Notes under the pieces: generated by a model
Told to the model about the DNA's origin: nothing
The model's database searches: none
The model's input: only the letters and a program-made list of their open reading frames with translations
Position numbers and translations under genes: made by a program
Assembly (NCBI GenBank): GCA_016861265.1
Contig: BOLA01000001.1
Location: 267,569 to 331,568, forward strand
Direction of reading: 5' to 3'
DNA from: Patescibacteria group bacterium
Lineage (GTDB): Bacteria; Patescibacteriota; Dojkabacteria; J137
DNA: 64,000 bases
In this document: piece by piece, positions 9,599 through 37,957 of the stretch
Layout of the letters: the number at the start of each line of letters is the position of its first letter
Position numbering within the stretch: position 1 is the stretch's first letter

Positions 9599-10792
9599 TC
9601 ATTCTTCAACGTGGTGACGACGTCCGGCAGATACAAGTCCACCATTGCCATTGAGTATGACCTCAAAGGAGGTTTCACCGTTCTGGAACGCGTGCCATTC
9701 GATCTCATTGCTGGTATTCCAGTTATGAGTTCTGCCATCGGCTGTAACCAGAACAATACTGTAACTTTCGGTATTGTTACCCGAAAGTCTTTCTTGCTCG
9801 CCGTTACGCCCCAGCGTATAGTCGCTATACCAATACGGTTCCCAATCGTTCCCAGACGACGTTAGATTCCTGCTAAATACCCACCGCTGCACTTGAAAAC
9901 GGTACACAGTTCCGTACACATCACGGTATGAGTAATCCGGCACAGTACGATAGCCACTGATGTAGCTTTCGGTACGTGTCTTTGGTGTGCAGGAACGAGT
10001 ATACGACCCGTTTGGGTTCTGGCTTGTAGTACATGATTCTCCATCAGAAACCGTCATTGAGCTATAGATTGGCTCTTGGTGCGATCCCGATTGGTAACGT
10101 TCTTGCCCCACAACTTCTCTAGCGCTAGTGCAGGAACGACTCCCGGTCGGGCAACCCGACTGGTTGTTATCGTTGACCCAAGTGTAAACTTCCACCGGCA
10201 TGGTACGTGACCATGATACTGATTGAATAGTTGCCGGCAAGGACTGCCTTACAATAAACTCACGATAGCCCCAGATTCCGCCCACAACAAGCAGTAGTCC
10301 AACCGCAATAATAATTAGCAGTTGGGGGATACTAAAGCTGGACAAATTGAACTTGGGACCCTGTCTTGGTTCGTAGCTTGGGTAACTTTCGCTCACAAAA
10401 TTGTAGCGTGGCTCTTCGTCGGTCTTGTGGTCGTAATCGATAGCACTGCTGGTGTAGGTGCTGGGAGAAGTTGCACTTGAAGCAACTTCTTTCGCAACAC
10501 CGGCTTTGGATGCTCCGCATTTGTCGCAGAAATTATCCTCGTCCGGATGCACGCCGCGACAGAACCGACATTCCCAAACACCCTCGCGCCGTTCAATTCT
10601 GCCGATTACCTCGGCACTGTGAATTTCGTAAGCAGAAATTTCGCTCTCGTCCGGCATGCGTGTGTCAGGATACCCGTTTGACTTTAACGGCATGTCCTTT
10701 CCACAGCTTGGACAGTGCAACTGCTCACTTATCAGCTTCGATTTCCCACAATTTGGGCAATCCCATAAACCGAAGAAATGTGTATCGGTCAT
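9599..10792 (-). CDS. membrane protein with two N-terminal zinc-ribbon motifs (GC-rich island A)
   Basis: CPNC..CPSC and CRFC..CDKC pairs, single TM (IPQLLIIIAVGLLLVVGGIWGY), about 200-aa extracytoplasmic tail; about 58% GC with GC3-rich codons versus about 33% background. Confidence 0.55.
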   Translation of the reverse strand: MTDTHFFGLWDCPNCGKSKLISEQLHCPSCGKDMPLKSNGYPDTRMPDESEISAYEIHSAEVIGRIERREGVWECRFCRGVHPDEDNFCDKCGASKAGVAKEVASSATSPSTYTSSAIDYDHKTDEEPRYNFVSESYPSYEPRQGPKFNLSSFSIPQLLIIIAVGLLLVVGGIWGYREFIVRQSLPATIQSVSWSRTMPVEVYTWVNDNNQSGCPTGSRSCTSAREVVGQERYQSGSHQEPIYSSMTVSDGESCTTSQNPNGSYTRSCTPKTRTESYISGYRTVPDYSYRDVYGTVYRFQVQRWVFSRNLTSSGNDWEPYWYSDYTLGRNGEQERLSGNNTESYSIVLVTADGRTHNWNTSNEIEWHAFQNGETSFEVILNGNGGLVSAGRRHHVEE

Positions 10793-12387: not shown

Positions 12388-12420
12388 AACTCCTCTTTCG
12401 AGGAGTTAAGTTTTAGACTT
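12388..12420 (+). terminator. rho-independent terminator after sipW
   Basis: AACTCCTC-tttc-GAGGAGTT followed by AAGTTTTAGACTTTT. Confidence 0.6.
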
Positions 12421-12769
12421 TTGCTACTTTAGCAGCTTTTTTTTCTTTTCGGAGTTTCTTAGCCATTTTTCCACTCATAACTTTAACTGGCTTTTCTGCT
12501 CTTTGATTTCCTTTATCTTTTTTTGACATAATATTATTATAAAAATTTAATACATTCTAACTAAGGTTATTTAGTATGAATTCATGGGTAAATTTAGATA
12601 ATAATTATTACTATACTAAGTATAAGCTAAAATTTAATTTCTTTAAACTTTTAAACTGGTAAATTAGTTTTATTAATATATAATAATTTGTCTGAAGTAT
12701 GAAAGGACCTGCTCCTTAACAACTTCGATGGAATTAACCGCTATGTTCAAATCTTCAAAGGAGAGTGTC

Positions 12770-13642
12770 ATGGCTAAACGAAAGACCCCTACGATCCAGG
12801 AACTGCTTCAGAAAGCGAGAGAAGCCCAGAAACTCCTAGCAACCCCGTCATCTATTCCAAACGTGTTCCAGCAGCTCAGAGCACAAGCTACCCTCAAGAA
12901 GGCTCTGACAGAACTAGCGAAAGTTGAGCTACGAGCGATTGTCCCGCATTACACACCGACTCTTAATATGATTGAAGGCGAACCACATAAATGGGAGATA
13001 GAGAATCAACCAAATCTTCAAGTCGCGGTAGAAGGTCAGGAAATTTCCGGTGCGCTAAATGACGGGGATGTTTTCCGTCTCTACTGTAATACCCTTTTGG
13101 GCTGGTCAGCCTATAGAGGGGAGGTAACAAAAGGAAAATTGGAGTTAGTTATAACTCCACAGCTGATTGGTTTTAATGAAGAAGCCTATCTAGCTGGATT
13201 GACTTTCGTTCGCTTGGGTGCGTCTGTCACGCACCCAGTAACAATAAGTGCCAAGCCGTCACCAGCTGCACTAAGGCTTAAAGCTGCGCTTATGGGGGAA
13301 GAGGTAGAGGGCGTGCAGGTCGGAACCTACCACGACGATGAGTTGGGCTTTACACTCTCTATCGCAACCGAAAAGCAGCTACAGAGTAATCGATTACTCG
13401 TCGCTGCAAGACTCCAAACAGATACCCCACAGGAAGCGGGGGCAGAGTTTCGGGTCAATTTCGACGCCTCAGATCGTCAAAGCTGGTTTAATGCAATCCA
13501 ATTCGGGAGCGATCAAGACCAGTTCGGATTGACCCATGCACACCTGAGGTCAGGTGCCGCACAGTCAACAGTGACTGCAGAACTTAAGCTAAAGGGCGAC
13601 AAAGTTCTCAAAGTTAGTTTGGAGGTCACCGTAGCGCAATAA
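12770..13642 (+). CDS. hypothetical protein (GC-rich island B); probable start at 12770 with SD AAGGAGAG, alternative ATG at 12728
   Basis: About 55% GC ORF; no recognisable motif. Confidence 0.5.
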   Translation: MAKRKTPTIQELLQKAREAQKLLATPSSIPNVFQQLRAQATLKKALTELAKVELRAIVPHYTPTLNMIEGEPHKWEIENQPNLQVAVEGQEISGALNDGDVFRLYCNTLLGWSAYRGEVTKGKLELVITPQLIGFNEEAYLAGLTFVRLGASVTHPVTISAKPSPAALRLKAALMGEEVEGVQVGTYHDDELGFTLSIATEKQLQSNRLLVAARLQTDTPQEAGAEFRVNFDASDRQSWFNAIQFGSDQDQFGLTHAHLRSGAAQSTVTAELKLKGDKVLKVSLEVTVAQ

Positions 13643-13735: not shown

Positions 13736-15130
13736 ATGATAAACTATCAAGATAAAGTCTTGAATTTTCTGGACGTGGAAACTACTGGCGGCAACTCCCG
13801 TATTGATAAGATTATTGAAATTTACGTTAGCAAAGTAATAAATAACCAAGTTGTTAAAACCTTTCATACGTTTGTTAATCCAGGTTTTAAGCCAAGTCCA
13901 TTTATTCAAAAACTTACAAAAATTACATATAAAGAATTAGATTCAGCTCCGCAATTTGAAGATATTGCCCAAGATTTATATGACTTTTTAAGCGATGGAA
14001 TATTTGTTGCTCATAATGCAAGATTTGATTACTCCTTTATAAAACAGGAGTTAAAAACTTACGGATTCGAAGTAAATTGGGACTATTGCTGTACTGTTAA
14101 ATTATCCAGAAGTCTTTACCCGCTATATAGATCGCACAATCTAGATAGTATTGCTACTAGAATAAATTTCCCCTCTGGCAATAGACATAGAGCTGATTTT
14201 GATACTGAAATTACAAGAAGTTTTTTTTATCATGCATTAAACCAGCATGGGTCTGAAAAATTTAATACTGCGTTTAATAACTCCATAAAACAATCTGCAA
14301 TTCCTAACGAATTAGTTAAATTTAATTCAAATGAAGTCCCTGAAAACCCTGGTGTATATATCTTTTATGATGCGCAAGATTACCCTATATATGTTGGTAT
14401 GAGTAAGAATTTACGTAGACGAATTAACGAGCATTTTTATCAGGATTTAACAAATTCAAAAGATTTAAATATAAATCAAAAATTAAAACGAATTGAAACA
14501 ATAGAAACTGCAGGGGTAGTTGGTGCGTTAATCCGCGAAGCAATTTTAGTTAAAAAATATCAACCGTTATACAACCGCCAATTAAGAAGAACTACAAATT
14601 TAGTTAAGCTTGAACAATTTAATGATGAACATGGTTATATAAATTTAAGATTCAATACTGACAATAATTTTGACATTGAAGGTTTAGGTAATTTAGTTGG
14701 AGTTTTTAGAAGCAAGGAGGAATTAAAAAATAAGATTGAGCAATTAGCAAAAGATTTTGGTTTATGCTCAAAACTACTAGGTTTAGAGAAGACAAAAAAC
14801 GCCTGCTTTGCTTATCAGTTAGAGGTATGCAAAGGAGCGTGTATTCATAAAATATCTGCTGATGAATACAATCAAATATTTAATGCTGCATTTTCTAATA
14901 TTCGGATTGCGAACTGGCCTACAGAATCTGAATTAAGAATTAAAGAAGAAAATGGAACATTAACTGAAGAATTAATATTCAACAAATGGGGATTAGTCGG
15001 AACAACACTTGATGATTTAGTAATAAAAGAGTTTACCCAAAATTTTAGATTTGATCTTGATATTTATAAAATACTTTCAAGTTATCTAAAGCGTGGCGGT
15101 GAGAACTTTAATGTTGAATTAAGTGACTGA
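13736..15130 (+). CDS. DnaQ-like 3'-5' exonuclease fused to GIY-YIG nuclease domain (Cho/UvrC-N-like)
   Basis: Exo I FLDVETTG, Exo II HNARFDYSF, Exo III HRADFD; GIY-YIG GVYIFYDAQDYPIYVGMSKNLRRRINEH. Confidence 0.75.
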   Translation: MINYQDKVLNFLDVETTGGNSRIDKIIEIYVSKVINNQVVKTFHTFVNPGFKPSPFIQKLTKITYKELDSAPQFEDIAQDLYDFLSDGIFVAHNARFDYSFIKQELKTYGFEVNWDYCCTVKLSRSLYPLYRSHNLDSIATRINFPSGNRHRADFDTEITRSFFYHALNQHGSEKFNTAFNNSIKQSAIPNELVKFNSNEVPENPGVYIFYDAQDYPIYVGMSKNLRRRINEHFYQDLTNSKDLNINQKLKRIETIETAGVVGALIREAILVKKYQPLYNRQLRRTTNLVKLEQFNDEHGYINLRFNTDNNFDIEGLGNLVGVFRSKEELKNKIEQLAKDFGLCSKLLGLEKTKNACFAYQLEVCKGACIHKISADEYNQIFNAAFSNIRIANWPTESELRIKEENGTLTEELIFNKWGLVGTTLDDLVIKEFTQNFRFDLDIYKILSSYLKRGGENFNVELSD

Positions 15131-15147
15131 CAGAGAGAGGGCCGTCG

Positions 15148-15573
15148 TCACATTTTCCTTACAAGTGCGAGTTTTTTTTCCAGTTGGATCTTGGGACGAG
15201 TGGGGTTAGGGATCACCAGTTCTACGTCTGGCTTTCCATTAACGATTAACGTGTTAACCCTTACCTCGAACATTGTGTGAAAGCTGTCTACTTCAGGTGC
15301 AAGGTGGATTCGGAAATGAACGATCTCCATGTCCTTGTCCCTCGCCGCTCCTTGACACACATTCAAAAAGCGTCTTGCCTCGCGAATCCGAATTGCGTTG
15401 ATTTCATCCGTCGTACCAAGCAGACTTTCGTACAACGGCATGTATCTTACTTCACATCGCCGCAACTCCAGACCTGCTGTCCCTACGAAAACCTCTACAC
15501 CACGGAGGTACATCTCCACACCTTCTTGAACTTCAAGGGTGTAGTTAGCTCTGGGGATTACAATAGTACTCAT
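15148..15573 (-). CDS. hypothetical protein, paralog 1 (GC-rich island C)
   Basis: 141 aa, about 45% identical to the 15712-16143 product; about 52% GC. Confidence 0.55.
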   Translation of the reverse strand: MSTIVIPRANYTLEVQEGVEMYLRGVEVFVGTAGLELRRCEVRYMPLYESLLGTTDEINAIRIREARRFLNVCQGAARDKDMEIVHFRIHLAPEVDSFHTMFEVRVNTLIVNGKPDVELVIPNPTRPKIQLEKKLALVRKM

Positions 15574-15621
15574 TACCCAACCTTTCTGCGTGCTGCTCTC
15601 TCTCTGTCAAATAGCTGTGGA

Positions 15622-15630
15622 ATTATAGCA
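15622..15630 (-). promoter_or_regulatory. extended -10 TGCTATAAT for cassette 1
   Basis: Reverse complement of attatagca; lies within the conserved right flank. Confidence 0.45.
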
Positions 15631-15711
15631 CCAAGAAGTGCAGTCAGTTAAACAAACGGTTTAGTGAGATTCTTTATATTGAATTAAGTGACTGACAGAG
15701 AGAGATTGCAG

Positions 15712-16143
15712 TCACAGAATGGAAACGATACTCAGTTTCTTTTCAAGGGCGATCTTTGGACCCGTCGGGTCTGGAAGTACGATTCGCGGCACAGGGTTCA
15801 CCTGCATCAGGTCCACATGAATCTCAAACACTGTGTGCCATGCTTGCTGCTCAGGTGCTAAATGCAGCCGGTATTGCACCAACTGCAAACCCAGCTTAGT
15901 TGCATCTGCACGCCATTGATCCATCGTGATTCCGACTTCCAACACCCGCAAGCTGTTGATCTGACTCATCGCTTGAGCTACATCACCGGTAAAAAGCGGT
16001 TGGTGACGCCTTTGGCAATGATGTAACTCCATATTGGCAGTACCCAGATAAGCCTGGACCTCTCTGAGGTACATTGGAGTACCATCTTGAATCTCCACAC
16101 GGTAGTGGGTAAGGGGAATAACAATTGACGACATCTTTTCCAC
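15712..16143 (-). CDS. hypothetical protein, paralog 2 (GC-rich island C)
   Basis: 143 aa; shares the motifs IVIP..Y.VE.Q.G..MYLR.V, HLAPE, PNPT.PKI.LEKKL with paralog 1. Confidence 0.55.
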   Translation of the reverse strand: MEKMSSIVIPLTHYRVEIQDGTPMYLREVQAYLGTANMELHHCQRRHQPLFTGDVAQAMSQINSLRVLEVGITMDQWRADATKLGLQLVQYRLHLAPEQQAWHTVFEIHVDLMQVNPVPRIVLPDPTGPKIALEKKLSIVSIL

Positions 16144-16188
16144 CTTTCTTGATAGTTCTGTTCTGCTCTCTCTCTGTCAAATGAGTGA

Positions 16189-16197
16189 ATTATAGCA
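16189..16197 (-). promoter_or_regulatory. extended -10 TGCTATAAT for cassette 2
   Basis: Same conserved flank as cassette 1. Confidence 0.45.
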
Positions 16198-16234
16198 CCA
16201 AGAGATGCTTTAACTAAACGGAAGTGTTTGCAGG

Positions 16235-16744
16235 TTAGTTGATTGAAACTTTAATCTTATCTCCAGTTATTAATTCCTGAATTTCAGGTTTATCTTCTGG
16301 TAAGTCTGCAGGTAATTGAAAATCTTTATGAACATAAGCTAATGTTATGTGTGGCTTAAATTCGTAAGAATTTGGTCTACTGCTGAATGTTCTTATTTTA
16401 TTAACGAATGCGGAAAGTTTTTTATCTTGATCAACAACTTTAACAGCTAGTATTCTGTATAAGCCTTGAAAGCCTTCAATAATCATAAAGTCACCTAGTT
16501 TTAATTCTCCTAAGTCAATTGATTTTATAAGGTCTAATAGGTCTTGATTATTTGCGGCACTTGGGTCAAGTCCATAAAAGAATTTTAAGTGGGCGTTATT
16601 CGTAACATCACCGTTTATGTGAGGCATTACAGGAGAAACATAATACTCCTCCTCTACCACCATCTGTTTAGTTATTCTACTTAAGTAATCTTTAAATGAT
16701 TGAGATAACTCTAATGCTACATATGCAACTTCTGGTTTATTCAT
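16235..16744 (-). CDS. putative 2H phosphoesterase (LigT-like) superfamily protein
   Basis: C-terminal H-x-T-x motif (PHITLAY); N-terminal motif degenerate (PHINGD); about 170 aa is typical for LigT-like proteins. Confidence 0.35.
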   Translation of the reverse strand: MNKPEVAYVALELSQSFKDYLSRITKQMVVEEEYYVSPVMPHINGDVTNNAHLKFFYGLDPSAANNQDLLDLIKSIDLGELKLGDFMIIEGFQGLYRILAVKVVDQDKKLSAFVNKIRTFSSRPNSYEFKPHITLAYVHKDFQLPADLPEDKPEIQELITGDKIKVSIN

Positions 16745-16863: not shown

Positions 16864-17445
16864 TTAGCTTTCGCTTTCCCAGTAGGTGATCTGAACGAAA
16901 CTTTCCGGATCGTACAGGTGAACTTTCGTTTGATTGTCCACGTATTCGATTTGGGCTAATGCCCAGCCCCACTCGAAACTTTCCAAGTGGAACTCGCCGA
17001 CATATGTGCTCATCACGCCCGCACCTTCGAAGTTGCCCTCGAGCGCCATTACCCACGCCTGAACAGCGTATGGCACTTCCGGTGCCGACGCGCCGCTTGC
17101 CGGGCAATTGAACAGCGCCTGACGCGAGGTCCCGCTTGTCCAAATAACTCCGACCAGCTGGCAGGTTGCCATTTGTTCTGCGCACGCCCCGTCGTACGGG
17201 GTCGTACCATCGATGTCGAATTCGCAGATTGCCCCCGGGAACTGGGGGATGGTACTCGGAACGGGGCACCAGACTTCCCACATATCACCGCGCTCCGCCT
17301 CTTTATAACAACCGTTGACCTCAACGAGGTCCGTGCACCACTGATCACTGCTATCGCAGTAAACAGTAGTATGCGAGGCGAACACGGGCAGCGCCACGGC
17401 TGCAAGAACGATGAACAACACGGATAAAACGATTTTGCGGAACAT
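16864..17445 (-). CDS. secreted Cys-rich protein, hypothetical (GC-rich island D)
   Basis: Signal peptide (..ALPVFA/SH), about 12 Cys, about 58% GC. Confidence 0.55.
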   Translation of the reverse strand: MFRKIVLSVLFIVLAAVALPVFASHTTVYCDSSDQWCTDLVEVNGCYKEAERGDMWEVWCPVPSTIPQFPGAICEFDIDGTTPYDGACAEQMATCQLVGVIWTSGTSRQALFNCPASGASAPEVPYAVQAWVMALEGNFEGAGVMSTYVGEFHLESFEWGWALAQIEYVDNQTKVHLYDPESFVQITYWESES

Positions 17446-17703: not shown

Positions 17704-18663
17704 TTGCGTCTTATGAACAATATTAAACACTTAAAAATAGTCGTAATTATTCTTGCTGTAACAAACTTGTTTACAGGAATAGGACTAGTAAACCAATCAA
17801 ATAACATCGCAAATATAGACCTTAGGAGTTACTCAAACCCTTACCCACTTGTAGATATTGCAAGAAACTTTATCGAACAAAAAGATGTGATCGTAAATCT
17901 TCAACCTTTAAGAGATTCATTAAAAGGTATTTATGAAGAATATGGAGAAGACAATATATCTTTATACATTGAATTTTTAAACAGTGGCGCGAATATATCT
18001 TATAACCAAGATGCCAGGTACTACCCTGCAAGCTTAATTAAAATGCCTGTAGCAATTGCTACAGCAAAGAAAATACAAGATGGGGAATGGGATTGGGATA
18101 GCAAATTAGTAATATTTGAAGAAGACGTTGACACCAAATTTGGCAATGTAGGTCTTAAACCAATTGGCACGAGAATCACAATAGAAGAACTGCTGAAAGA
18201 ACTTCTAACAAAATCAGATAATACAGCATACAAGATGTTGTTAAGAAATCTTGGTTCAGGTCCAGTGAATGACTTCTTAACAGAGACAGGTTTAAATGAT
18301 TTTTTTGACCAGGATTTAAATATTACAGCAAAAGAATACACAAGACTTTTTAGATCTTTATACACATCTAATTACCTTACCCGAAGGTATTCGCAAAAAA
18401 TACTGGAACTACTTTCACAATCAGAAAGGAATTACCTGGGACAAGGTATTCCCGAAGATGTTACTTATGCTCATAAATTCGGTGAAAATGCAGTAGAATA
18501 TATATTTGCAGATTCGGGGATAGTATATATACCTTCTAGACCATATATTGTAACGGTTTTATATAAAGGCAAGGAATTGGAAGAAAAAGAACATGTTGAT
18601 AGTTTTTTTAGAAAGACCGGAGAAACAATATTCAAATATTTTAACGAATATAATAATCAATGA
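17704..18663 (+). CDS. class A beta-lactamase-like serine hydrolase, secreted
   Basis: N-terminal signal/TM, S-x-x-K (PASLIK), SDN (KSDNTA), degenerate KTG region (HKFGEN); stop overlaps the start of the giant gene (ATGA). Confidence 0.55.
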   Translation: MRLMNNIKHLKIVVIILAVTNLFTGIGLVNQSNNIANIDLRSYSNPYPLVDIARNFIEQKDVIVNLQPLRDSLKGIYEEYGEDNISLYIEFLNSGANISYNQDARYYPASLIKMPVAIATAKKIQDGEWDWDSKLVIFEEDVDTKFGNVGLKPIGTRITIEELLKELLTKSDNTAYKMLLRNLGSGPVNDFLTETGLNDFFDQDLNITAKEYTRLFRSLYTSNYLTRRYSQKILELLSQSERNYLGQGIPEDVTYAHKFGENAVEYIFADSGIVYIPSRPYIVTVLYKGKELEEKEHVDSFFRKTGETIFKYFNEYNNQ

Positions 18664-21600
18664 AATTTAGATTTAAAAAAATAATTACAATTTTATTCGT
18701 TTTAACTGCTAATCTTGCTCTGGTTTTCCCTGCAGATGTAGCACTGACAATTGTAAAGGAATCATTAAAAGACAGTAAGGTTGTAGATATCATGTATTGG
18801 GCACTGCAAGATTCAAAAGTTATTGACAATTTTTTAGATACAAAACTAGTTGAACAAGTCAAAGCTGACCCTCCACCAAATGGGTTTTATTTACAAACTG
18901 GAAAATTCGTAGGAAATGCTGCTCCAAAAAGTATCACTGGGCTAGGATTTTCACCTGATCTTGTAATACTAAAACCAGATACAACTGCGGGGTCAGGTGC
19001 AATATTCAAAACAAAAGCAATGTCAATATTGAATGTATCCTATTTTGTTGCTACCGCCCAGACCACGACAGGAGCTATAAGGCTAGATGAGGATGGATTT
19101 ACTGCATCAACAACAACTTCAAATAATGCAAATGTGACCACTTCATGGGTTGCAATAGGTGGATCCGACTGCACAGCTTCAGGTGTATTTTGTATTGGTG
19201 CATACACTGGGAATGGTGCAGGAGCAAGAACTATAGATACTGGATTCCAACCAGACTTGGTCTGGGTCAAGAGATCAACAGCTGTTGCAGGATCCTGGAG
19301 GACGTCTGATATGGCTACAAATGAATCCCAATATTTTCAAGCAACTACCCAAGATACTACTGGAACTAATTTTACTACGTTTAGCTCAACAGGCTTCACA
19401 GTAGGGCCAACTAATAATGTTAGTACTGGTATATATTATTTTGTTGCATTTAAACAGGTTGCAGGTGCACTGGATGTTGGTACTTACACCGGAAACGCAA
19501 CAGATAACCGAAATATTACTGGTGTGGGCTTTAAACCAGATTTTGTATTCCTTAAGAATGCCAATGCCGGAACCGCTGTATCAGGCATGTTTAATATTAA
19601 TGAATCTTATGGCGATAGCTCTAACTATTTTACGGATACAGCAAACTTAGTTAACTCTATTCAAGCATTACAATCGGATGGATTCCAAGTAGGTACTGAC
19701 AATACTGCAAATGGTTCTGGGAACACCATTTACTACGCGGCCTTTGGAGGGGCAGCGGCATATTCAAACGGCAGTGGCACATTCAAGGCCGCGAGTGGTA
19801 GTTATACAGGTACTGGGCAAAATGAAGTAATTCAAAATCTAGACTTTATGCCGGACCTGGTAATTATAAAAGGTAATACTACACAATCAGGTGTATTTAG
19901 AACTAGTCTAATGTCTAGTGATTCTACTGCGTATCTAGATGCGGCTACCGCAAATTTTGCAGGGGGAATTATTTCTATTAATCCAGATGGATTTACTGTG
20001 GGTACTTCTGCGACAGTAAACACAACAGGACTTACATACTATTGGACAGCATATGGCAACGCGTGGATTGCAGATAAAAACTCAGGAAGTTCGGATTTTT
20101 TTGTAGGTGCATATTACGGTAATAGTATAGACAATAGAAGTATTACAAGACTACCATTTCAGCCTGACATGGTCACTGTAAAACGAAATGGGGCGAGCGC
20201 AGGTGCATGGAGATCATCTATCCATTCTGGGGATTCGAGTAGTTTCTTCGCTGCTACTGCTGATGCATCTAATGTAATTCAATCATTTAATAGTGATGGG
20301 TTTCAGATAGGAACGTCTGCAAGTACGAATACTGCAGCAAGTGTATACTTCTATTTTGGCTTTAAGACAGGAACTAACTTTGCAGTGGGTAGTTACTCAG
20401 GTACTGGGATTACACAAAATATTACATCTGTGGGGTTTCAACCTGATAATCTTTGGGTTAAGGCAGCAACTGCAGTCAGGGGAGTACAAAAAAATGCTGA
20501 ACTTACAGGAAATACTGCACTGCCTTTTATTAACGTTGCCTCTATTGCCAATGCAATTACGGGGGTACTATCTAATGGCTTTAGCATTGGTACTGCCGCG
20601 GAAACAAATACCTCTGCAGTAACTTATAGGTATGTAGCTTGGAATAATAACTTTAATACACTAACTCCTACTTACACCATGCAAACAGGTTACTATATAG
20701 GTAACGGTGCAGTAAAAACAATCACTAACTTAGGCTTTTCACCAGACCTAGTAATTATCAAATCTGATACCAATGTCACATCACCGGTATTTAAAACAAA
20801 ACAAATGATATCTTCAAGCACTTCGTACTTTATCGCAACTGCTGACGCAACTACAGGGATAATAAGGCTGGATCCAGATGGATTTACGGTTTCTACGAGT
20901 GTTGGAGTAGCATCAAATAATAGGTACACTTGGATTGCATTTGACGGATCGGATTGCTCATCATCAGGGCAATTCTGTACTTCTGCATATATTGGCAACG
21001 GTGGTGGTACAAGAGCTATATCAAATGTAGGATTTCAACCAGACATAGCTATTGTTAAACAATCAACTGCTGTTGCAGCAAATTGGCGATCATCTTCTAT
21101 GCCCTCAAATACAGCTCAATATTTTATTAATACGAATCAAAAAACTACGGGAGCACTATTTGCATCACTAGATGCAACAGGATACACAGTTGGTACAACA
21201 AATAATGCTAGCGCAGGTATCTATTACTCTATTTCGTTTAAAAGTACGAGTGGAGCAATCAATGTAGGAACTTTCACCGGAAATGGAACCGACAATAGAA
21301 ATATTACTGGTGTAGGTTTTAGGCCAGATTTCGTATTGATAAAGAATGCGAATGCTACAACTGCAGTTGCAGGAGTATTTAATCTTAACGAATCATATGG
21401 AGATAATTCAGGGTTTTTTACGGCTTCTGCAAATACTTTTAATTCAATACAAGAACTACAATCTGATGGATTTCAAGTAGGGAACGACAACACTGCCAAC
21501 GGGAATACTAACACAATGTATTATGCTGCTTTTGGTGTTGCTGTAGCACTAAACCCCGGAAGTGGAACATTTCAGATGGCATCTGGTAGTTATACTGGTG

Positions 21601-24600
21601 TAGGGAATTATATGCAGGTCTCTGGACTTGGGTTTCAGCCAGATTTAATTATAATAAAGGGTAATACAACGCAATCTGGGGTATTTAGGACATCTTCAAT
21701 GGCAGCAGACTCAACCGCATACTTGGATTCTGCGACAGCTAACTTTGCAGGCGGCATAATTGCTATACATACCGATAGCTTTGTGGTTGGAACGTCTCCA
21801 ACAGTTAACAGCACAGGTCTCACATACTACTGGACAGCATACGGAAATGCTTGGACTTCTGAAAAAAATTCGGGAAGTGCTGATTTCTTTGTCGGAGGCT
21901 ATTACGGTAATGGCATAGATAATAGAAATATTTCAAGAATACCTTTTCAACCAGATATGGTTACAGTTAAAAGAAGTGGTGCTACTGGGGGAGCTTGGCG
22001 TTCCTCAACGCACTCAGGTGATACAAGTAGTTTCTTTGCAGCTACTGCAAATACATCTAATGTAATTCAAGCAATAAATTCTGATGGATACCAAATAGGT
22101 ACAGCTGCAAATGTAAATACTGCCGCAAATATCTATTGGCATTTTGGCTTTGATGCTGGTCCAAATTTTACCGTTGGCAACTATAGTGGAACGGGTTCGG
22201 CTAACAATATTACATCTGTTGGATTTCAGCCTGATAATCTTTGGGTTAAATCAACAGGAGCAGTAAGAGGTGTTCAAAGAATGACTAATCTAACGGGGGA
22301 TGCCGCGATTCCATTTATTAACGTCGCATCTATTACCGGGGCAATAACAGGAGTTTTATCTAATGGATTTAGTGTTGGGACCGCTGCAGAAACAAATTCT
22401 GTAGGGACTAATAATTATTTTTATGCAGCTTGGAACGTACCTGCAATTACATTAGCATCTACAGGCACACAAGTAGCTACAATTAATAAACCAATTACAG
22501 ACACACACGTTGGTGCTGCTTTTACTTTAGCTTCTAATGGTGCCAACATAAACCTTAATAATATAACAATATCTGAAACTGGAACAGTAAATGCAAATAC
22601 CAATCTTGCTAACGTAAAACTATACTATGAAACTGCTGGTACTTGTACCTACGACGGAATTGAGACACAATATGGCAGCACTCAGAGCTTTAATGCATCA
22701 CAGCAGGCAACATTTGCAAATACGTTAAGCATTGGCACTTCTCAGGTATGTATGTATGTAGTTTTAGACGTAGGTTCTGGAGCATCTGCTGGAGAAACAA
22801 TTGAAATAGAAGTAACACAATCAACAGACATAGAAGCAGATCGAGCTGTATTAGGAACATTCCCTGTTACTCTTGCAGGGACATCTACAATTTCATCAGG
22901 AAACGTTGCACCAAATAATCCTGCAAGTTTATTACAAGCAAGAACTGACGACTCTCCTATTTCAACAGGAGCCTGGATAAACCAATCATCTGTAAAATTT
23001 TCTGCAACAGTAAGCGATACAGATAATCCAGACACACTTTATTTATGTGTGGAGTTACAACCTGTGAGCACACCATTCACTGGAACAGAAACGGCATGTG
23101 GTAGCAGTGTTAATTACGTTGGCACACCATTAACCGCAACCGTAACAATAAGTTCCCTAACCGAAAATGAATATAAATGGCAAGCAAGTGTAAAGGACTC
23201 AGCTGGAGCATATTCAGCATGGGTAACCTATTCAAATTCTCCTACCGGATTAGTAGGTTATTGGAAAATGGACGAGTCAAGTTGGACTAACGATTGCAGT
23301 ACATTCACGGCATTAGATTCTTCAGCTAACTCATTAAATGCAAGATCATGTCCTAACACAAGCGGACCAAATACAAATGCAGCAGGTCAGTATGGTAGAG
23401 CTGGCGAATTTGATGGTGCTGACGACCGAATCGAGGTACCTTATAACTCAGTATTAAGCCTTGGCAATAATATGACATTAGAAGCATGGATAAGACCTGA
23501 CTCTGTAGCAATAGATTGGCAGTCAATTATGAATAAAGGAAGTACAAGTGACTGGTCTGCAAGATCATATGGGCTTATGCTTAATTATGGGAATGTACAT
23601 ATAAGCTACTTAAATGGCAATGGATGGCAATCATTTGCAACCACTACCTCACCGATAACCGCAGGGGTCTGGACACATGTAGCATACACAAGAGATGGAA
23701 CAACAGAAAAAATATATGTAAATGGATCACAAGTATTAAGTCAGACCATTACTGAAAATATAGCAGATGACACCTTCCCACTAACAATAGGTGGTGTAGC
23801 ACAGGGTGGCTCTGGAGTAGAAAAATTTGATGGTCTGCTAGATGAAGTAAAAATTTATAGTGTTGCAAGGAACTTATCAGAAGTTAACGCTGATATGAAT
23901 GCAACATCTGATAGAAATTTTGGAATCGACCTTTCTGCTCCTACTGGTGGTACTGTCTTTGATGGCGTAACTATAGGCGTTGATTCTACATTTAACAATG
24001 GATCATTATCAACTCTATCTGCAAATTGGAGTGGAATTGATTCAACACTTGCAGGTTTGCAAGGTTATGAGTATTCAATCGGTACTACTCCTGGTGGAAC
24101 GGATATCTTAACTTGGACCAGCATTGGAACATCAACCTCTATTACAAATAGTTCATTAACACTTCAAAGTTCGGTATTGTATTACGTTAATATTAGGACT
24201 ACAGATTTTGCAGGAAACACTGCAGTAATATCTTCGAATGGACAGATGATACTACCTGCTTTGTCATTTACATTATCTACAACATCAATTGTTTTTGATA
24301 ACTTGAATAATGGAAATAGTTTTACAGACACAAAATCAACAACACTAACTACATCCACAAATGCATACAACGGCTATATTATTCAGCTTTATAAAACTGA
24401 CAATTTAAGATCTATACTTTATCCAAGCGAAACAATTAGCGACTTTAGTGCTGGTAGTTACGCAGCTCCTGCAGAATGGGGACCTGCGAATTATGGATTT
24501 GGCTACACATCAAGTGATACAACAATTCAAGGAATTAATAAGTTTAATCCAGTTACTTGTGCAGGTGGAGGTTCTTCACCTTGTTATGCACCAATCTCTT

Positions 24601-24764
24601 CTAGTGCGCCAGGTGATATAGTAGCAGACCACACAACAACAGTCACAGGATCACCTATTACAAATGAACAGTTTGATATAACATATCAAATAAAAGTGCC
24701 ACAAACTCAGATAGCAAGTCCTTATACGACAACTTTGGTTTATACCATAGTACCTCAGTATTAA
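18660..24764 (+). CDS. giant surface protein (2034 aa): signal peptide, 10 x about 130-aa repeats, LamG/concanavalin-like domain, Ig-like domains, shared C-terminal motif
   Basis: LamG_3-like segment (GEFDGADDRIEVPY...LEAWIRPD...WTHVAYTRDG...DGLLDEVKIY); repeat units G.Y.GNG..NR.IT..GFQPD.V..K...G.WRSS; C-terminal ..SPYTTTLVYTIVPQY resembles the C-terminus of the 26081-27142 product. Confidence 0.8.
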   Translation: MKFRFKKIITILFVLTANLALVFPADVALTIVKESLKDSKVVDIMYWALQDSKVIDNFLDTKLVEQVKADPPPNGFYLQTGKFVGNAAPKSITGLGFSPDLVILKPDTTAGSGAIFKTKAMSILNVSYFVATAQTTTGAIRLDEDGFTASTTTSNNANVTTSWVAIGGSDCTASGVFCIGAYTGNGAGARTIDTGFQPDLVWVKRSTAVAGSWRTSDMATNESQYFQATTQDTTGTNFTTFSSTGFTVGPTNNVSTGIYYFVAFKQVAGALDVGTYTGNATDNRNITGVGFKPDFVFLKNANAGTAVSGMFNINESYGDSSNYFTDTANLVNSIQALQSDGFQVGTDNTANGSGNTIYYAAFGGAAAYSNGSGTFKAASGSYTGTGQNEVIQNLDFMPDLVIIKGNTTQSGVFRTSLMSSDSTAYLDAATANFAGGIISINPDGFTVGTSATVNTTGLTYYWTAYGNAWIADKNSGSSDFFVGAYYGNSIDNRSITRLPFQPDMVTVKRNGASAGAWRSSIHSGDSSSFFAATADASNVIQSFNSDGFQIGTSASTNTAASVYFYFGFKTGTNFAVGSYSGTGITQNITSVGFQPDNLWVKAATAVRGVQKNAELTGNTALPFINVASIANAITGVLSNGFSIGTAAETNTSAVTYRYVAWNNNFNTLTPTYTMQTGYYIGNGAVKTITNLGFSPDLVIIKSDTNVTSPVFKTKQMISSSTSYFIATADATTGIIRLDPDGFTVSTSVGVASNNRYTWIAFDGSDCSSSGQFCTSAYIGNGGGTRAISNVGFQPDIAIVKQSTAVAANWRSSSMPSNTAQYFINTNQKTTGALFASLDATGYTVGTTNNASAGIYYSISFKSTSGAINVGTFTGNGTDNRNITGVGFRPDFVLIKNANATTAVAGVFNLNESYGDNSGFFTASANTFNSIQELQSDGFQVGNDNTANGNTNTMYYAAFGVAVALNPGSGTFQMASGSYTGVGNYMQVSGLGFQPDLIIIKGNTTQSGVFRTSSMAADSTAYLDSATANFAGGIIAIHTDSFVVGTSPTVNSTGLTYYWTAYGNAWTSEKNSGSADFFVGGYYGNGIDNRNISRIPFQPDMVTVKRSGATGGAWRSSTHSGDTSSFFAATANTSNVIQAINSDGYQIGTAANVNTAANIYWHFGFDAGPNFTVGNYSGTGSANNITSVGFQPDNLWVKSTGAVRGVQRMTNLTGDAAIPFINVASITGAITGVLSNGFSVGTAAETNSVGTNNYFYAAWNVPAITLASTGTQVATINKPITDTHVGAAFTLASNGANINLNNITISETGTVNANTNLANVKLYYETAGTCTYDGIETQYGSTQSFNASQQATFANTLSIGTSQVCMYVVLDVGSGASAGETIEIEVTQSTDIEADRAVLGTFPVTLAGTSTISSGNVAPNNPASLLQARTDDSPISTGAWINQSSVKFSATVSDTDNPDTLYLCVELQPVSTPFTGTETACGSSVNYVGTPLTATVTISSLTENEYKWQASVKDSAGAYSAWVTYSNSPTGLVGYWKMDESSWTNDCSTFTALDSSANSLNARSCPNTSGPNTNAAGQYGRAGEFDGADDRIEVPYNSVLSLGNNMTLEAWIRPDSVAIDWQSIMNKGSTSDWSARSYGLMLNYGNVHISYLNGNGWQSFATTTSPITAGVWTHVAYTRDGTTEKIYVNGSQVLSQTITENIADDTFPLTIGGVAQGGSGVEKFDGLLDEVKIYSVARNLSEVNADMNATSDRNFGIDLSAPTGGTVFDGVTIGVDSTFNNGSLSTLSANWSGIDSTLAGLQGYEYSIGTTPGGTDILTWTSIGTSTSITNSSLTLQSSVLYYVNIRTTDFAGNTAVISSNGQMILPALSFTLSTTSIVFDNLNNGNSFTDTKSTTLTTSTNAYNGYIIQLYKTDNLRSILYPSETISDFSAGSYAAPAEWGPANYGFGYTSSDTTIQGINKFNPVTCAGGGSSPCYAPISSSAPGDIVADHTTTVTGSPITNEQFDITYQIKVPQTQIASPYTTTLVYTIVPQY
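18873..22436 (+). repeat. Two tandem about 1.78-kb super-repeats (each 5 x about 130-aa units) inside the giant gene
   Basis: Protein residues about 72-665 and about 665-1259 align colinearly; the DNA copies are visibly similar (for example GGATTTCAACCAGA..., TATTACTGGTGTGGGCTTTAAACCAGATTTTGTATT versus TATTACTGGTGTAGGTTTTAGGCCAGATTTCGTATT). Confidence 0.7.
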
Positions 24765-30126: not shown

Positions 30127-30600
30127 ATGAAGTTCGAAATGATTCACTACACTGTACAGATCGTCCGTCATGGTGGCGGAACCCAAGAGGTTCTAGCTGA
30201 CGCCGCTCATCTGCCTATCGTCCCGACAAAGGGCGATCTGGTGGAAACGGAAAACGGAGGATTTTTTCGGGTGAAGCACAACATCGGCGGAAATCGCCAG
30301 CTCGTGCTCGATGGCGGCCGATATCAGATCACCGGCTTCTTCTCCAAAGATGGAGCTGGCGTTGTGATTCGCCCCAGCGGTCGTATCGAAGGTGTTAAGG
30401 CGCAACCTACGGGCAAGCTCGTTGGTTTTGATGCCGCCTTGCCTGCGGGGAACCTCGTGAACGTCGACGGCAAGTACCTGATGATCGTCGAACGCATCAT
30501 CTCATCGCAAGGGGTGACCCTTGTGGTCGATGACCTCGAGCGAGACGTCCTCACGGGCGAGCCCGAACTGCAGGGCGTGGTAATGCGTTACACGTTCTAG
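30127..30600 (+). CDS. hypothetical protein (GC-rich island E)
   Basis: 157 aa, about 60% GC, strong SD AAAAAGGAAG. Confidence 0.5.
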   Translation: MKFEMIHYTVQIVRHGGGTQEVLADAAHLPIVPTKGDLVETENGGFFRVKHNIGGNRQLVLDGGRYQITGFFSKDGAGVVIRPSGRIEGVKAQPTGKLVGFDAALPAGNLVNVDGKYLMIVERIISSQGVTLVVDDLERDVLTGEPELQGVVMRYTF

Positions 30601-36793: not shown

Positions 36794-37957
36794 TTAGAAC
36801 TTCGACCAGTCGAAGGGCTTACGTGGCGGGCGCGGGGTCGAAACATCTTCTTCCGCCTCCCCACTTTCGAAGACAGCCTGACCTTCCGCCTTGGGGTGAC
36901 CAATCGGCCAGGCATGGCGATAATTCTCGAACTCATCCCCGGGCTTCGGCATGACACCGAAGTTGGGCAAACGAGTCTGAGCGCCGGCATCGATCTTGGC
37001 GACTTCCAGCGCGTACCAGATTGCGTTGGCATCGCGCTGCGAAATCGGCTGGTTCGTACCGCGCGTTGTCTCGATCAGGAAATCAACCAAACGCTGCTGC
37101 GTCACGCCGACGTTCTCGGTGATGTAGATGATCGCAACCTGAGTTTCAGCGATCAGGTCAGCATTGGGGACAAGGACAACGCGTCCTTTACCCAAAGTGC
37201 TTTCCCAGAAGCTGGTCACGTGGTTGCGTGTTGCTGCTTGACCACCACGCGCCACCTGAAGGTAGAACGTGTGCCACGCCTTATTCAGGCTGCGGGCGAG
37301 ATCACTGGTCTTGGTCGTGGATTGCAGACCAATCCCCAAGTGCAGCATTGCTGCTTCCTTGGTGATGCTGCCGCGACCTTCTTGGTCACCGACAATCATC
37401 ATGTAGCCTTTGAGGCCGTACATGGTATAGATGTCGGTCTGGACAGCGCGATCAACGTAGGCGAGCGCCATGTCGTAGTCTTCAACCGGATCGCCGCCGC
37501 TTTCCGCTGCGAGCAGAAGACGAAGCTGTTCAGCAATCCGATTGTCGGACTCGAACTGAGTCTGTTGATAGACCGGTTTGCTGTCGTCAACGTCCTGAAC
37601 CACTGCGGATGAGAGCTGCATGTTGTAGCGCTCCCGGGCGAAACCCAGCATGTCGTAGATCGTGCCAAGCTCAAAGAAAGCCTTGCCCACGTTCTCGCCC
37701 ATGCTGGCAGTACCGTCGAATACCGTGAGCAACGGCATCGCCGGGCCATTCTTGAGGATGGTCTTGTCGCCTTCACGCACCAAAGCGTTACGCGACTTAC
37801 GGGTCTTGCCATTGATGTCCACCAACGGATCGACCTTACCGGTTGCGCGGAAAACACGATCACCGACCTCGTGTACCGTCTCACGACGGGCTTTCATGGT
37901 GGCGACCGTTTCTTCGAACTTGGCACTGCTGAAGGTTGCGACGTCTGTTGTACGCAT
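36794..37957 (-). CDS. vWA-like (MIDAS D-x-T-x-S) domain protein (GC-rich island F)
   Basis: LLTVFDGTASMGE; about 58% GC. Confidence 0.45.
   Translation of the reverse strand: MRTTDVATFSSAKFEETVATMKARRETVHEVGDRVFRATGKVDPLVDINGKTRKSRNALVREGDKTILKNGPAMPLLTVFDGTASMGENVGKAFFELGTIYDMLGFARERYNMQLSSAVVQDVDDSKPVYQQTQFESDNRIAEQLRLLLAAESGGDPVEDYDMALAYVDRAVQTDIYTMYGLKGYMMIVGDQEGRGSITKEAAMLHLGIGLQSTTKTSDLARSLNKAWHTFYLQVARGGQAATRNHVTSFWESTLGKGRVVLVPNADLIAETQVAIIYITENVGVTQQRLVDFLIETTRGTNQPISQRDANAIWYALEVAKIDAGAQTRLPNFGVMPKPGDEFENYRHAWPIGHPKAEGQAVFESGEAEEDVSTPRPPRKPFDWSKF

Follow-up and report, generated by a model that had tools for sequence, protein, structure and literature searches.

A conserved inverted repeat around a duplicated gene family of uncultured bacteria: a candidate 5'-3' UTR closing helix

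Introduction

In the 64,000-nt stretch of DNA analysed here (the window), two neighbouring minus-strand genes differ strongly in their coding sequences while the non-coding sequences around them are almost the same, and each gene lies between the arms of an inverted repeat. What keeps the flanks constant while the genes diverge, and does the inverted repeat act in DNA, in mRNA or not at all? The initial annotation of the locus, made from the sequence, proposed an in situ duplication and pointed to long-range pairing between the untranslated regions of each mRNA. We followed up these proposals by comparing the locus with its relatives, by folding the predicted transcripts and by comparing the arrangement with known systems.

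Locus organization

The features of the locus are listed in Table 1. Two tandem minus-strand units of about 567 bp had been described, and a spacing of 565-570 bp with ORFs of 141 and 140 aa agreed with this. Cassette B was started at the ATG that matches the N-terminus of its orthologues; the longest ORF reaches a GTG at 16143. The genes had also been called GC-rich, at about 52% GC. The measured GC content of the coding sequences was 47% and 50%, with a GC3 of 0.49 and 0.52 versus 0.17-0.34 in ordinary genes of the window. The predicted promoter of cassette A matched at 10/12 positions and had the TG. No tRNAs were found in the window, and Rfam at gathering thresholds returned nothing in its whole length; with the cut-off relaxed to E <= 5, the locus had no match except one to a snoRNA, which was taken as chance.

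Table 1. Coordinates of the exonuclease gene and the two cassettes in the window.
Feature	Position	Strand	Basis or remark
Exonuclease gene, convergent neighbour, 464 aa, DEDD exonuclease + GIY-YIG (Cho-like)	13736..15130	+	ORF; Pfam RNase_T 7e-31, GIY-YIG 2e-7
Last codons of exonuclease gene with stop TGA (15128-15130)		+	inside 3' element of cassette A
Cassette A 3' element, GTGAC-GACGGCC-CTCTCTCTGTCA-GTCAC (gene strand)	15123..15151	-	sequence; GTGAC includes stop codon
Cassette A 3' arm, CUCUCUCUGUCA in mRNA	15128..15139	-	repeat search
Cassette A CDS, 141 aa (P0001)	15148..15573	-	ORF
Cassette A 5' arm UGACAGAGAGAGA, start ~3-5 nt past predicted transcription start	15597..15609	-	
Cassette A predicted promoter: -35-like TTAACT, 18-nt spacer, extended -10 TGCTATAAT (15622-15630)	15622..15651	-	
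Diverged copy of exonuclease 3' end, in spacer between cassettes B and A	15664..15692	.	repeat comparison
Cassette B 3' element, GTGAC-TGCAAT-CTCTCTCTGTCA-GTCAC	15688..15715	-	
Cassette B 3' arm, 13 nt, 100% complementary to 16167-16179	15693..15705	-	
Cassette B CDS, 140 aa (P0003)	15712..16134	-	ORF
Cassette B 5' arm	16167..16179	-	
Cassette B extended -10 TGCTATAAT	16189..16197	-	exact TTGGTGCTATAATT at 16188-16201

The 26-nt left flank TTGAATTAAGTGACTGACAGAGAGAG was identical in both copies (15114-15139 and 15679-15704), as first reported. The right flank was nearly so: (G)CTCTCTCTCTGTCAAAT showed 96% identity over 23 nt, and TTGGTGCTATAATT, which contains TGCTATAAT, was the same in both. 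The coding sequences were not as conserved as these flanks, with 52% identity at the nucleotide level. The exonuclease ORF ends at 15130, within the left flank, where its overlap had been noted. Furthermore, the spacer between the cassettes holds a diverged copy of the exonuclease 3' end (15664-15704 versus 15099-15139, a 41-nt repeat with 88% identity whose last 26 nt are identical), indicating that the duplication arose in situ, as had been proposed.

Both genes were bracketed by TGACAGAGAGAG and CTCTCTCTGTCA, a repeat absent elsewhere in the 64 kb. The bracketing thus stood as first described, but its length did not: instead of 11 bp the inverted repeat was 12-13 nt when perfect, or 15 nt at 93% identity. 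For an 11-mer with at most one mismatch, 0.45 occurrences were expected in the window and 5 were found, of which the 4 exact matches were the four arms. Among the 52 long ORFs of the window, only these 2 had an inverted repeat of at least 12 nt between their 5' and 3' flanks; in the remaining ones such repeats reached at most 10 nt and were AT-only. The perfect 12-13 nt complementarity between 5' and 3' flanks was beyond chance, the observed count being reached in 0/100 shuffles. The bracket is not a general trait of GC-rich genes either, as it is missing from the other GC-rich genes of the window. In the array spacer, the promoter lies between the 3' arm of one cassette and the 5' arm of the next, which are perfect inverted repeats of each other over 13 nt. 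A transposable element or MITE was rejected: the motif occurs in the 64 kb only at this locus and at the same syntenic position in five lineages, and the bases that border the arms (ATT... / ...GTC) do not form direct repeats.

The cassette protein

The divergence of the two products was confirmed, with a measured identity of 41% instead of about 45%. The cassette proteins are fast-evolving, yet under purifying selection: the orthologue of cassette A was 82% identical with a dN/dS of 0.11, and that of cassette B was 78% identical with a dN/dS of 0.13. The family was unrecognised at the outset and is so still, since nothing significant was found in Pfam, NCBIfam, PHROGs, PADLOC and PDB sequences or by Foldseek against PDB and BFVD. 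When 1.84 billion representatives were searched exhaustively with phmmer, 6 clusters were obtained, and a profile search of 5.8 billion proteins gave 7; as far as sequence searches reach, the family is confined to one narrow group of tiny uncultured bacteria. Its members have 127-141 aa, and the predicted structure is a beta-rich globular model (pLDDT 91.6) whose predicted elements include just two helices (residues 56-80 and 125-131), neither of them transmembrane. Judged from this model, the fold is apparently new. No recognisable DNA-binding fold or motif was seen in the predicted protein. An HUH/IS200-like transposase was also considered and rejected, since the H-x-H motif is not conserved between the paralogues.

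Conservation of the flanks

The comparison set consisted of nine distinct cassettes from five lineages (contigs labelled L001-L023 and L114-L115). Across these nine, the flanks were better conserved than the coding sequence, as first claimed for the two copies in the window: mean pairwise identity was 0.71-0.80 for the -10 box with the 5' arm and 0.87 for the 3' arm, versus 0.34-0.68 for the CDS. Between the window and the L002 genome dS was 0.8-1.0, and the arms were nonetheless invariant. The geometry was also kept. TGnTATAAT was conserved in 8/9 cassettes, and in the nine the 5' arm starts 7-10 nt after it, i.e. at about +3 to +5 of the predicted transcript. In 9/9 a GTGAC box, overlapping the stop codon or directly next to it, precedes the start of the 3' arm by 6-7 nt, and all nine have the GTGAC...GTCAC 3' architecture. 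Unpaired neighbours were conserved too, namely TATTT upstream of the 5' arm and GTCAC after the 3' arm.

Both arms were kept around single-copy orthologues in four other lineages (L013, L018, L019 and L023), where the cassette protein was 30-39% identical and the adjacent exonuclease 66-69%. A bracket retained at single-copy genes whose protein has diverged this far indicates selection on the flanks rather than a side effect of duplication. Its conservation in these distant relatives also shows that the bracket is older than the duplication. The exonuclease gene was syntenic with the cassette gene in 4/5 lineages and absent in L018.

The flank motif is not a common genomic repeat, as shown by searches of the window, genomes and IMG/VR. 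The 3' motif had 0 matches in 185,579 species-representative genomes and none in metagenome contigs besides the known L013 contig, and the bare 17-nt 3' arm CTCTCTCTGTCAGTCAC had 0 matches in IMG/VR. The 5' motif had 9 matches in IMG/VR; none of them (0/9) had the partner arm, so they were regarded as chance matches. At 80 loci with exonuclease homologues from other phyla, neither the cassette family nor the motif was present.

The 3' element could be a mere shared bidirectional terminator or 3' hairpin, in which case gene conversion would account for the flank identity in the arrays and the bracket would have no function. In fact, the exonuclease stop codon lies in or beside the element in every lineage having that gene, the spacers inside one array are nearly identical to one another, and the local hairpin (GUGAC...GUCAC), which overlaps the 3' arm, is stable, with -9 to -14 kcal/mol across the cassettes (-11.8 kcal/mol in cassette A and -10.1 kcal/mol in cassette B). 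However, the equal conservation of the 5' arm and its exact complementarity would be left unexplained. The element also accompanies the cassette gene in L018, which has no exonuclease gene, and at internal array positions, and no U-tract follows the hairpin. Gene conversion is impossible in single-copy lineages, yet both arms are conserved there. We consider a functionless bracket very unlikely.

Array rearrangement

Array size and order vary between close relatives. The window and L007-L012 have the order B-A-exonuclease; in L001-L004 and L114 it is C-A-B-exonuclease. In L005, A was directly joined to the exonuclease gene, the junction lying inside the CT-repeat/GTCAC motif with one extra CT unit. 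A third arrangement (A-B), for which L114/L115 had been candidates, was discarded, as these are C-A-B contigs truncated inside cassette C.

Such variation recalls integron arrays, in which tandem unrelated or diverged ORFs are separated by conserved imperfect-palindromic elements and their number and order vary by strain. The inverted repeats might thus be DNA recombination sites, either of an inverton switching the gene on and off at a fixed promoter or of integron-like excision and insertion. In the inverton version, the inversion junction for cassette A would read CTATTTGACAGAGAGAGGGCCGTCGTCAC. The likeness goes some way: there are tandem ORFs, palindromic separators and a varying number and order, the CDS but not the promoter lies between the repeats, the breakpoints lie in the conserved flanks (in L005 inside the motif itself), and the two arms with their 83-nt spacer look like an inter-cassette site with an imperfect palindrome. 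However, no recombinase gene was detected with Pfam within ~6 kb in any of the five lineages, and neither integrase nor attI nor attC core was seen. Unlike integron cassettes, the units carry a promoter each and encode members of one protein family, and their boxes are GTGAC/GTCAC with (GA)n/(CT)n and not of the RYYYAAC/GTTRRRY type, so an assignment to integron cassettes was rejected. All of ~35 cassette copies (L001-L023, with L114-L115 in agreement) have one orientation relative to promoter and neighbours, a weak test of inversion, since an assembly shows the majority form. In distant relatives the gene occurs once and in a syntenic position, which indicates that it is not mobile; the ancestral state here is a single chromosomal gene. 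Unequal crossover or slippage between the direct repeats accounts for the rearrangements observed. Dedicated recombination sites are, in our judgement, quite unlikely.

RNA folding and covariation

The arms follow the predicted -10 and the stop codon, the positions expected if, as initially annotated, the repeats lie in the 5' and 3' UTRs. The long-range UTR pairing suggested at the same time was reproduced as a prediction, since folding gave a closing helix in all nine cassettes. In the full-length predicted mRNAs the MFE and ensemble structures were closed by a terminal helix (9/9) with a mean pairing probability of 0.85-0.95, and the centroid structures retained it. Compared with dinucleotide shuffles, the mRNA of cassette B (winB) reached z = -5.8 and that of cassette A (winA) z = -2.3.

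Pairs of the closing helix were counted in a fixed register by script, MAFFT having misaligned the GA repeat of L019. Ten pairs of the core helix were invariant and one was broken in L019, and in L005 a G-to-U change in the 5' arm was uncompensated. The outermost pair, U-A in 8 cassettes and A-U in L019, was the sole compensatory change in about five independent lineages. The inner stem of the 3' hairpin varies in sequence yet stays paired; in L019, some of the sense-strand pairs are G-U. Sense and antisense duplex energies were similar in 6/9 cassettes and had no consistent asymmetry, so that strand-specific selection on the RNA is not demonstrated by this comparison. Complementarity extending beyond the core as far as the Shine-Dalgarno sequence exceeded shuffles only in winB, L002C and L019 (z -2.6 to -4.3), indicating that Shine-Dalgarno masking is not general.

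It is not only the complementarity of the arms that is conserved but also their sequence, which speaks less for a generic helix than for sequence-specific recognition, whether by a protein or on DNA. One possibility is that a regulator, perhaps the cassette protein itself, binds the same 12-nt sequence in the DNA both where transcription starts and where the gene ends, and represses or loops the unit. The invariance of the arms across lineages whose proteins are 30-39% identical is consistent with this, as are the conserved unpaired neighbours and the absence of an energy asymmetry between the strands. The 5' arm at +3 to +16 of the predicted start has a classic operator position, and within arrays two sites flank each internal promoter at 83-nt spacing as a perfect 13-nt inverted repeat. 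However, at single-copy loci the 3' arm is equally conserved without being near any family promoter, no DNA-binding fold or motif could be recognised in the predicted protein, and the structured hairpin that contains the 3' arm has a covarying stem, suggesting RNA. On balance we think that a DNA-level regulatory site is unlikely.

Discussion

The reading that we prefer, to which we give about an even chance, is that the bracket acts in the mRNA as a 5'-3' UTR closing helix and that recombination between the flanks yields the array variants. Each cassette would be transcribed on its own and encode a small cytoplasmic protein. The 5'-terminal UGACAGAGAGAG would pair with CUCUCUCUGUCA just past the stop codon, so that a single 12-14-bp helix would hold the two ends together and make the ~490-nt mRNA a closed loop. 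The closing helix and the local 3' hairpin would compete for part of the 3' arm, so the transcript may have two alternative end conformations. The closed form could shield both mRNA ends from 5' and 3' ribonucleases, and/or it could offer a double-stranded processing site at which units are trimmed from read-through transcripts. In the B and C types and in L019, the helix would be extended over the Shine-Dalgarno region and may dampen translation. The transcript ends, the pairing in vivo and any effect on stability, processing or translation are what we infer from these predictions. As for the arrays, the conserved flanks would serve as recombination substrates because selection keeps them constant while the CDS drifts, and an ancestral single gene would in this way have given rise to reshuffled arrays of 2-3.

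The arms may also be the recognition element of a dedicated system, which seems distinctly improbable to us: the cassette protein could bind the terminal helix of its own mRNA as an autoregulatory, duplicable module, or the arms could be sites of recombinase-independent or otherwise unknown shuffling or inversion.

A closing helix of the predicted kind has several counterparts. In rRNA operons, flanking sequences pair into processing stalks that RNase III cuts, freeing the units from a longer transcript. The paired flanks predicted here would similarly bring the ends of a unit together; however, the stems flank mRNAs and have 12-14 bp, whereas rRNA stalks belong to non-coding RNAs and exceed 20 bp. 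Among mRNAs, that of B. subtilis hbs has a 14-bp 5'/3'-UTR interaction overlapping an RNase Y site in a long structured leader (Braun, Durand & Condon 2017, PMC5737220). The cassettes resemble it in being short, monocistronic mRNAs for a small protein (~0.4-0.5 kb as predicted, with a helix of 12-14 bp). They differ in that the 5' arm is predicted right at the 5' terminus, with the 3' arm in a competing hairpin at the stop codon, and in that the arms are invariant over a gene family and duplicated with the gene.

In S. aureus icaR, the Shine-Dalgarno sequence itself is the partner with which a UCCCCUG motif in a 3' UTR of >300 nt pairs (Ruiz de los Mozos et al. 2013, PMC3868564). The pyrimidine-rich 3' motif (CUCUCUCU here) and the purine-rich 5' segment are shared features, and the duplex could be cut by RNase III. 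However, the core helix of the cassettes lies 20-30 nt upstream of the Shine-Dalgarno sequence, masking is predicted in some cassettes only, and the 3' arm comes immediately after the stop codon. In the type I toxin-antitoxin system hok/Sok, the tac/fbi fold-back closes the full-length mRNA and an altered 3' end leads to an alternative conformation; hok encodes a ~50-aa membrane toxin, with the antisense RNA Sok and the leader ORF mok (PMC9841398). The paired mRNA ends (predicted here), the alternative conformation and the conservation over paralogous loci are similar. However, the cassette product is soluble-looking, beta-rich and 127-141 aa long, and neither an antisense gene, a leader ORF nor, by promoter prediction, a conserved antisense promoter was found at the cassettes. 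A hok/Sok-type system was rejected, there being no small hydrophobic toxin and no conserved antisense promoter.

By analogy with these systems, the cassettes would be a variant of a rare known kind, the 5'-3' UTR-paired mRNAs. Functional end-to-end pairing in bacterial mRNAs is represented by a handful of singly studied cases (hok, icaR, hbs). Here a bracket invariant in sequence surrounds every member of a family despite ~30% protein identity, and travels with the duplicated gene. With two leader types, with or without Shine-Dalgarno masking, the nine cassettes would form a natural comparison series on the role of a closing helix. The locus may also serve as an example of how selected non-coding flanks can turn into a recombining cassette array without a dedicated recombinase. 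The combination of fast evolution and copy-number variation is a pattern often linked with conflict or interaction functions. Finally, the hosts are uncultured bacteria with small genomes, a group in which post-transcriptional control is essentially unstudied.

Organization of the Tandem Cassettes

Positions 15099-16229 of the window hold two units in head-to-tail order with a spacing of 565-570 bp, and one minus-strand gene apiece (cassettes A and B). The initial annotation, which had reported that their flanks were better conserved than their coding sequences, was borne out in every detail. Identity between A and B is 41% for the proteins and 52% for the CDS nucleotides, whereas the 26 nt 3' of each gene are identical and the 5' sides share an identical TTGGTGCTATAATT plus a 23-nt block at 96% identity. 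As had been claimed, an inverted repeat brackets each CDS: TGACAGAGAGAG(A) lies on one side and its reverse complement on the other, with a perfect match over 12-13 nt; the two halves are called here the 5' and 3' arms. The bracket 11-mer, with an expectation of 0.45 in the window, has exactly four exact matches, all at the four arms, and in a comparison of 52 long ORFs no other gene had a 5'/3' flank inverted repeat of >10 nt. The B-A spacer carries a diverged copy of the last ~40 nt of the neighbouring convergent gene for a DEDD exonuclease, so the duplication occurred at this locus, in agreement with the earlier proposal.

Features of the cassette region and high-GC3 ORFs in the window
Feature	Position	Strand	Product
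High-GC3 ORF	9599-10792	-	
Small lysine-rich ORF (MSKKDKGNQRAEKPVKVMSGKMAKKLRKEKKAAKVAKV)	12413-12529	-	38 aa
High-GC3 ORF, ORFan	12728-13642	+	304 aa
Cassette A CDS	15148-15573	-	141 aa
Cassette B CDS	15712-16134	-	140 aa
Gene with weak 2H match, directly upstream of array	16235-16744	-	169 aa
High-GC3 ORF, ORFan	16864-17445	-	193 aa
Beta-lactamase-family gene	17704-18663		
Gene with long internal repeats	18660-24764	+	2034 aa
High-GC3 ORF	30127-30600	+	
High-GC3 ORF	36794-37957	-	
High-GC3 ORF	38021-38938	-	
High-GC3 ORF	45285-46019	-	

Conservation of the Bracket in Single-Copy Relatives

Our main new result is that the bracket is older than the duplication. In the distant family contigs (L013-17, L018, L019-22 and L023) the cassette gene occurs as one copy at the same syntenic position; compared with the window, the exonuclease is 66-69% identical and the cassette protein only 30-39%. 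All these lineages kept the -10 box (TGnTATAAT in 8/9 of the distinct cassettes compared), (T)ATTTGACAGAGAGAG 7-10 nt downstream of it, a Shine-Dalgarno sequence and start codon after the 5' arm, and GTGAC-N6-7-CTCTCTCTGTCA-GTCAC at or just past the stop codon. Mean pairwise identity among the nine cassettes was 0.71-0.80 for the promoter and 5' arm and 0.87 for the 3' arm, against 0.34-0.68 for the CDS. Gene conversion needs more than one copy, so it is purifying selection that holds the flanks, and the feature is both real and selected. L018 lacks the exonuclease gene and yet retains the 3' element, which therefore goes with the cassette gene and not with its neighbour. A bidirectional 3'-end hairpin combined with concerted evolution is improbable, for it leaves both the 5' arm and the single-copy lineages unexplained.

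A and B are protein-coding genes under purifying selection: identity to their orthologues in the L002 genome is 82% for A and 78% for B, and dN/dS is 0.11 and 0.13, respectively (dS 0.87-1.0). In the same comparison, their dN was roughly 3-4 times the values for the exonuclease (0.032) and the 169-aa gene (0.033). The family is tiny: six clusters were found when 1.84 billion representative proteins were scanned exhaustively with phmmer, and seven in a profile search of 5.8 billion. It had been called unrecognised, and indeed no match appeared in Pfam, NCBIfam, PHROGs, PADLOC, PDB sequences, or phage and plasmid records; structurally, the predicted fold is apparently new. As classes for the bracketed feature, integron, transposon, type I toxin-antitoxin and known RNA family were all rejected by membership tests. 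Among 185,579 species-representative genomes, the closest homologues of the exonuclease were only 43% identical (Dojkabacteria, Levyibacteriota, Woesebacteria and similar MAGs), and none of 80 such loci had the cassette family or motif. The window thus probably derives from a Patescibacteria/CPR-like lineage (GC ~33%) that has few representatives in genome collections.

Rearrangement of the Arrays

The order 169-aa gene - B - A - exonuclease is shared by the window and six independent assemblies (L007-L012), while in a sister population (L001-L004, L114-115) it is 169-aa gene - C - A - B - exonuclease; C, a third paralogue, has 48% identity to B. L005, from the same sample series, encodes an identical A protein, and here nothing separates A from the exonuclease gene: the two meet inside the CT-repeat/GTCAC motif, with one extra CT unit, and A is preceded by a leader recombinant between the B and A types. 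This population variant of cassette A (L005 55-120 and 520-585) carries an uncompensated G-to-T change in its 5' arm (TTTTACAGAGAGAG) besides the extra CT unit in its 3' arm, and slippage may be frequent in the GA/CT repeats. Three arrangements among close relatives indicate that copy number and order change on short time scales, and the family is amplified into recombining cassette arrays. The breakpoints fall within the conserved flanks, and unequal crossover or slippage between flank direct repeats is enough to explain them. No recombinase gene was found within about 6 kb of the cassettes in any lineage examined. That the arms are recombination or inversion sites is improbable: no invertase gene lies nearby, and none of roughly 35 cassette copies in the assembled family contigs, a weak test, had the alternative orientation.

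Predicted mRNA Folding and Possible Roles of the Bracket

The arms are positioned where the ends of the mRNA are expected. Predicted transcripts, taken to start 5 nt before the 5' arm and to end 12 nt beyond the 3' arm, were folded, and a helix between the arms closed the MFE structure in all nine cassettes (ensemble pairing probability 0.85-0.95); independent runs retained it in the centroid structures. Compared with dinucleotide shuffles, the whole mRNAs had more structure (z = -5.8 for B, z = -2.3 for A). The core helix has 12-14 bp in a fixed register with 10 invariant pairs. Eight cassettes have U-A as the outermost pair and L019 has A-U, both bases having changed in a compensatory way; L019 lacks the innermost pair, yet six more pairs follow beyond the mismatch. 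The 3' arm takes part in a local hairpin as well (outer stem GUGAC/GUCAC, inner stem ...RCR/UGU..., -9 to -14 kcal/mol), whose sequence varies with pairing kept, including G-U pairs in L019. Hairpin and long-range helix share about 5 nt and are therefore alternative conformations. Complementarity extends beyond the core in the B and C types and in L019, as far as the Shine-Dalgarno/start region, which pairs with the last codons (z -2.6 to -4.3 against shuffled controls); the other six cassettes had no excess.

We favour a terminal 5'-3' helix that would close the cassette mRNA and control its stability, processing or translation, a reading to which we give about an even chance, because the cassette features match those of the few known bacterial mRNAs with end-to-end pairing. 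In hbs of B. subtilis a 14-bp helix modulates the access of RNase Y and RNase J1 (PMC5737220). In icaR of S. aureus a pyrimidine motif of the 3' UTR pairs with the 5' UTR, blocking initiation and creating an RNase III substrate (PMC3868564), and full-length hok mRNA is closed by the tac/fbi stem until 3' processing (PMC9841398). Pairing is functional in those three and predicted in the cassettes. However, the arms are conserved as sequences, together with neighbouring unpaired bases, which suggests sequence-specific recognition and weakens the closing-helix reading. Sense and antisense duplex energies were similar in 6/9 cassettes, so selection may act on the RNA or on a DNA inverted repeat. 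Arms acting as DNA operator sites with looping are unlikely.

Base Composition and Neighbouring Genes

GC3 is 0.49-0.52 in the cassettes against a background of 0.17-0.34. It is also elevated in the single-copy orthologues (0.41-0.46), which makes it a long-standing family property and not a mark of recent import, possibly due to selection for mRNA structure or recombination-associated GC bias. Codon composition in the window is bimodal, with nine ORFs, both cassettes included, at 0.46-0.68 and the rest at 0.17-0.34. The high-GC3 ORFs are grouped as islands of one or two genes; the bracket was found in none of the about 7-8 others, several of which differ from strain to strain, and apart from a Zn-ribbon protein and an M50B peptidase they had no Pfam match. 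The only relatives of one 387-aa high-GC3 protein are distant (25-27%) and plasmid-borne, in high-GC bacteria such as Rhodococcus and Agrobacterium, which hints at horizontal acquisition of at least some islands. The 304-aa gene, between the exonuclease and 38-aa genes, occurs in window-type contigs (L007, L008) and is absent from L001/L116, where a 102-aa gene replaces the 193-aa one. The N-terminus of the 193-aa protein is hydrophobic and signal-peptide-like, as judged by eye.

Gene calls of exactly 38 aa occupy the syntenic position of the lysine-rich ORF in every related lineage that was compared, and the ORF probably encodes a real small basic protein. The 2034-aa product, whose gene the beta-lactamase-family gene precedes, is probably a large surface protein; the L007 version has precomputed Pfam matches to DUF7483 and Laminin_G_3. 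The 169-aa gene weakly matches the 2H phosphoesterase / 2'-5' RNA ligase superfamily (E = 0.006). This RNA-end-modifying enzyme family, if the weak match holds, adjoins an mRNA with predicted paired ends only in the window's close populations; relatives in single-copy lineages (L018 766-1257, L023 324-815) lie 3-5 kb from the cassette gene, and the adjacency is probably plain synteny.

Taken at the level of the folding predictions, the bracket is best described as a new form of 5'-3' UTR pairing on a clade-restricted protein family, and its significance would be greater if a dedicated protein or recombination mechanism recognised the arms.
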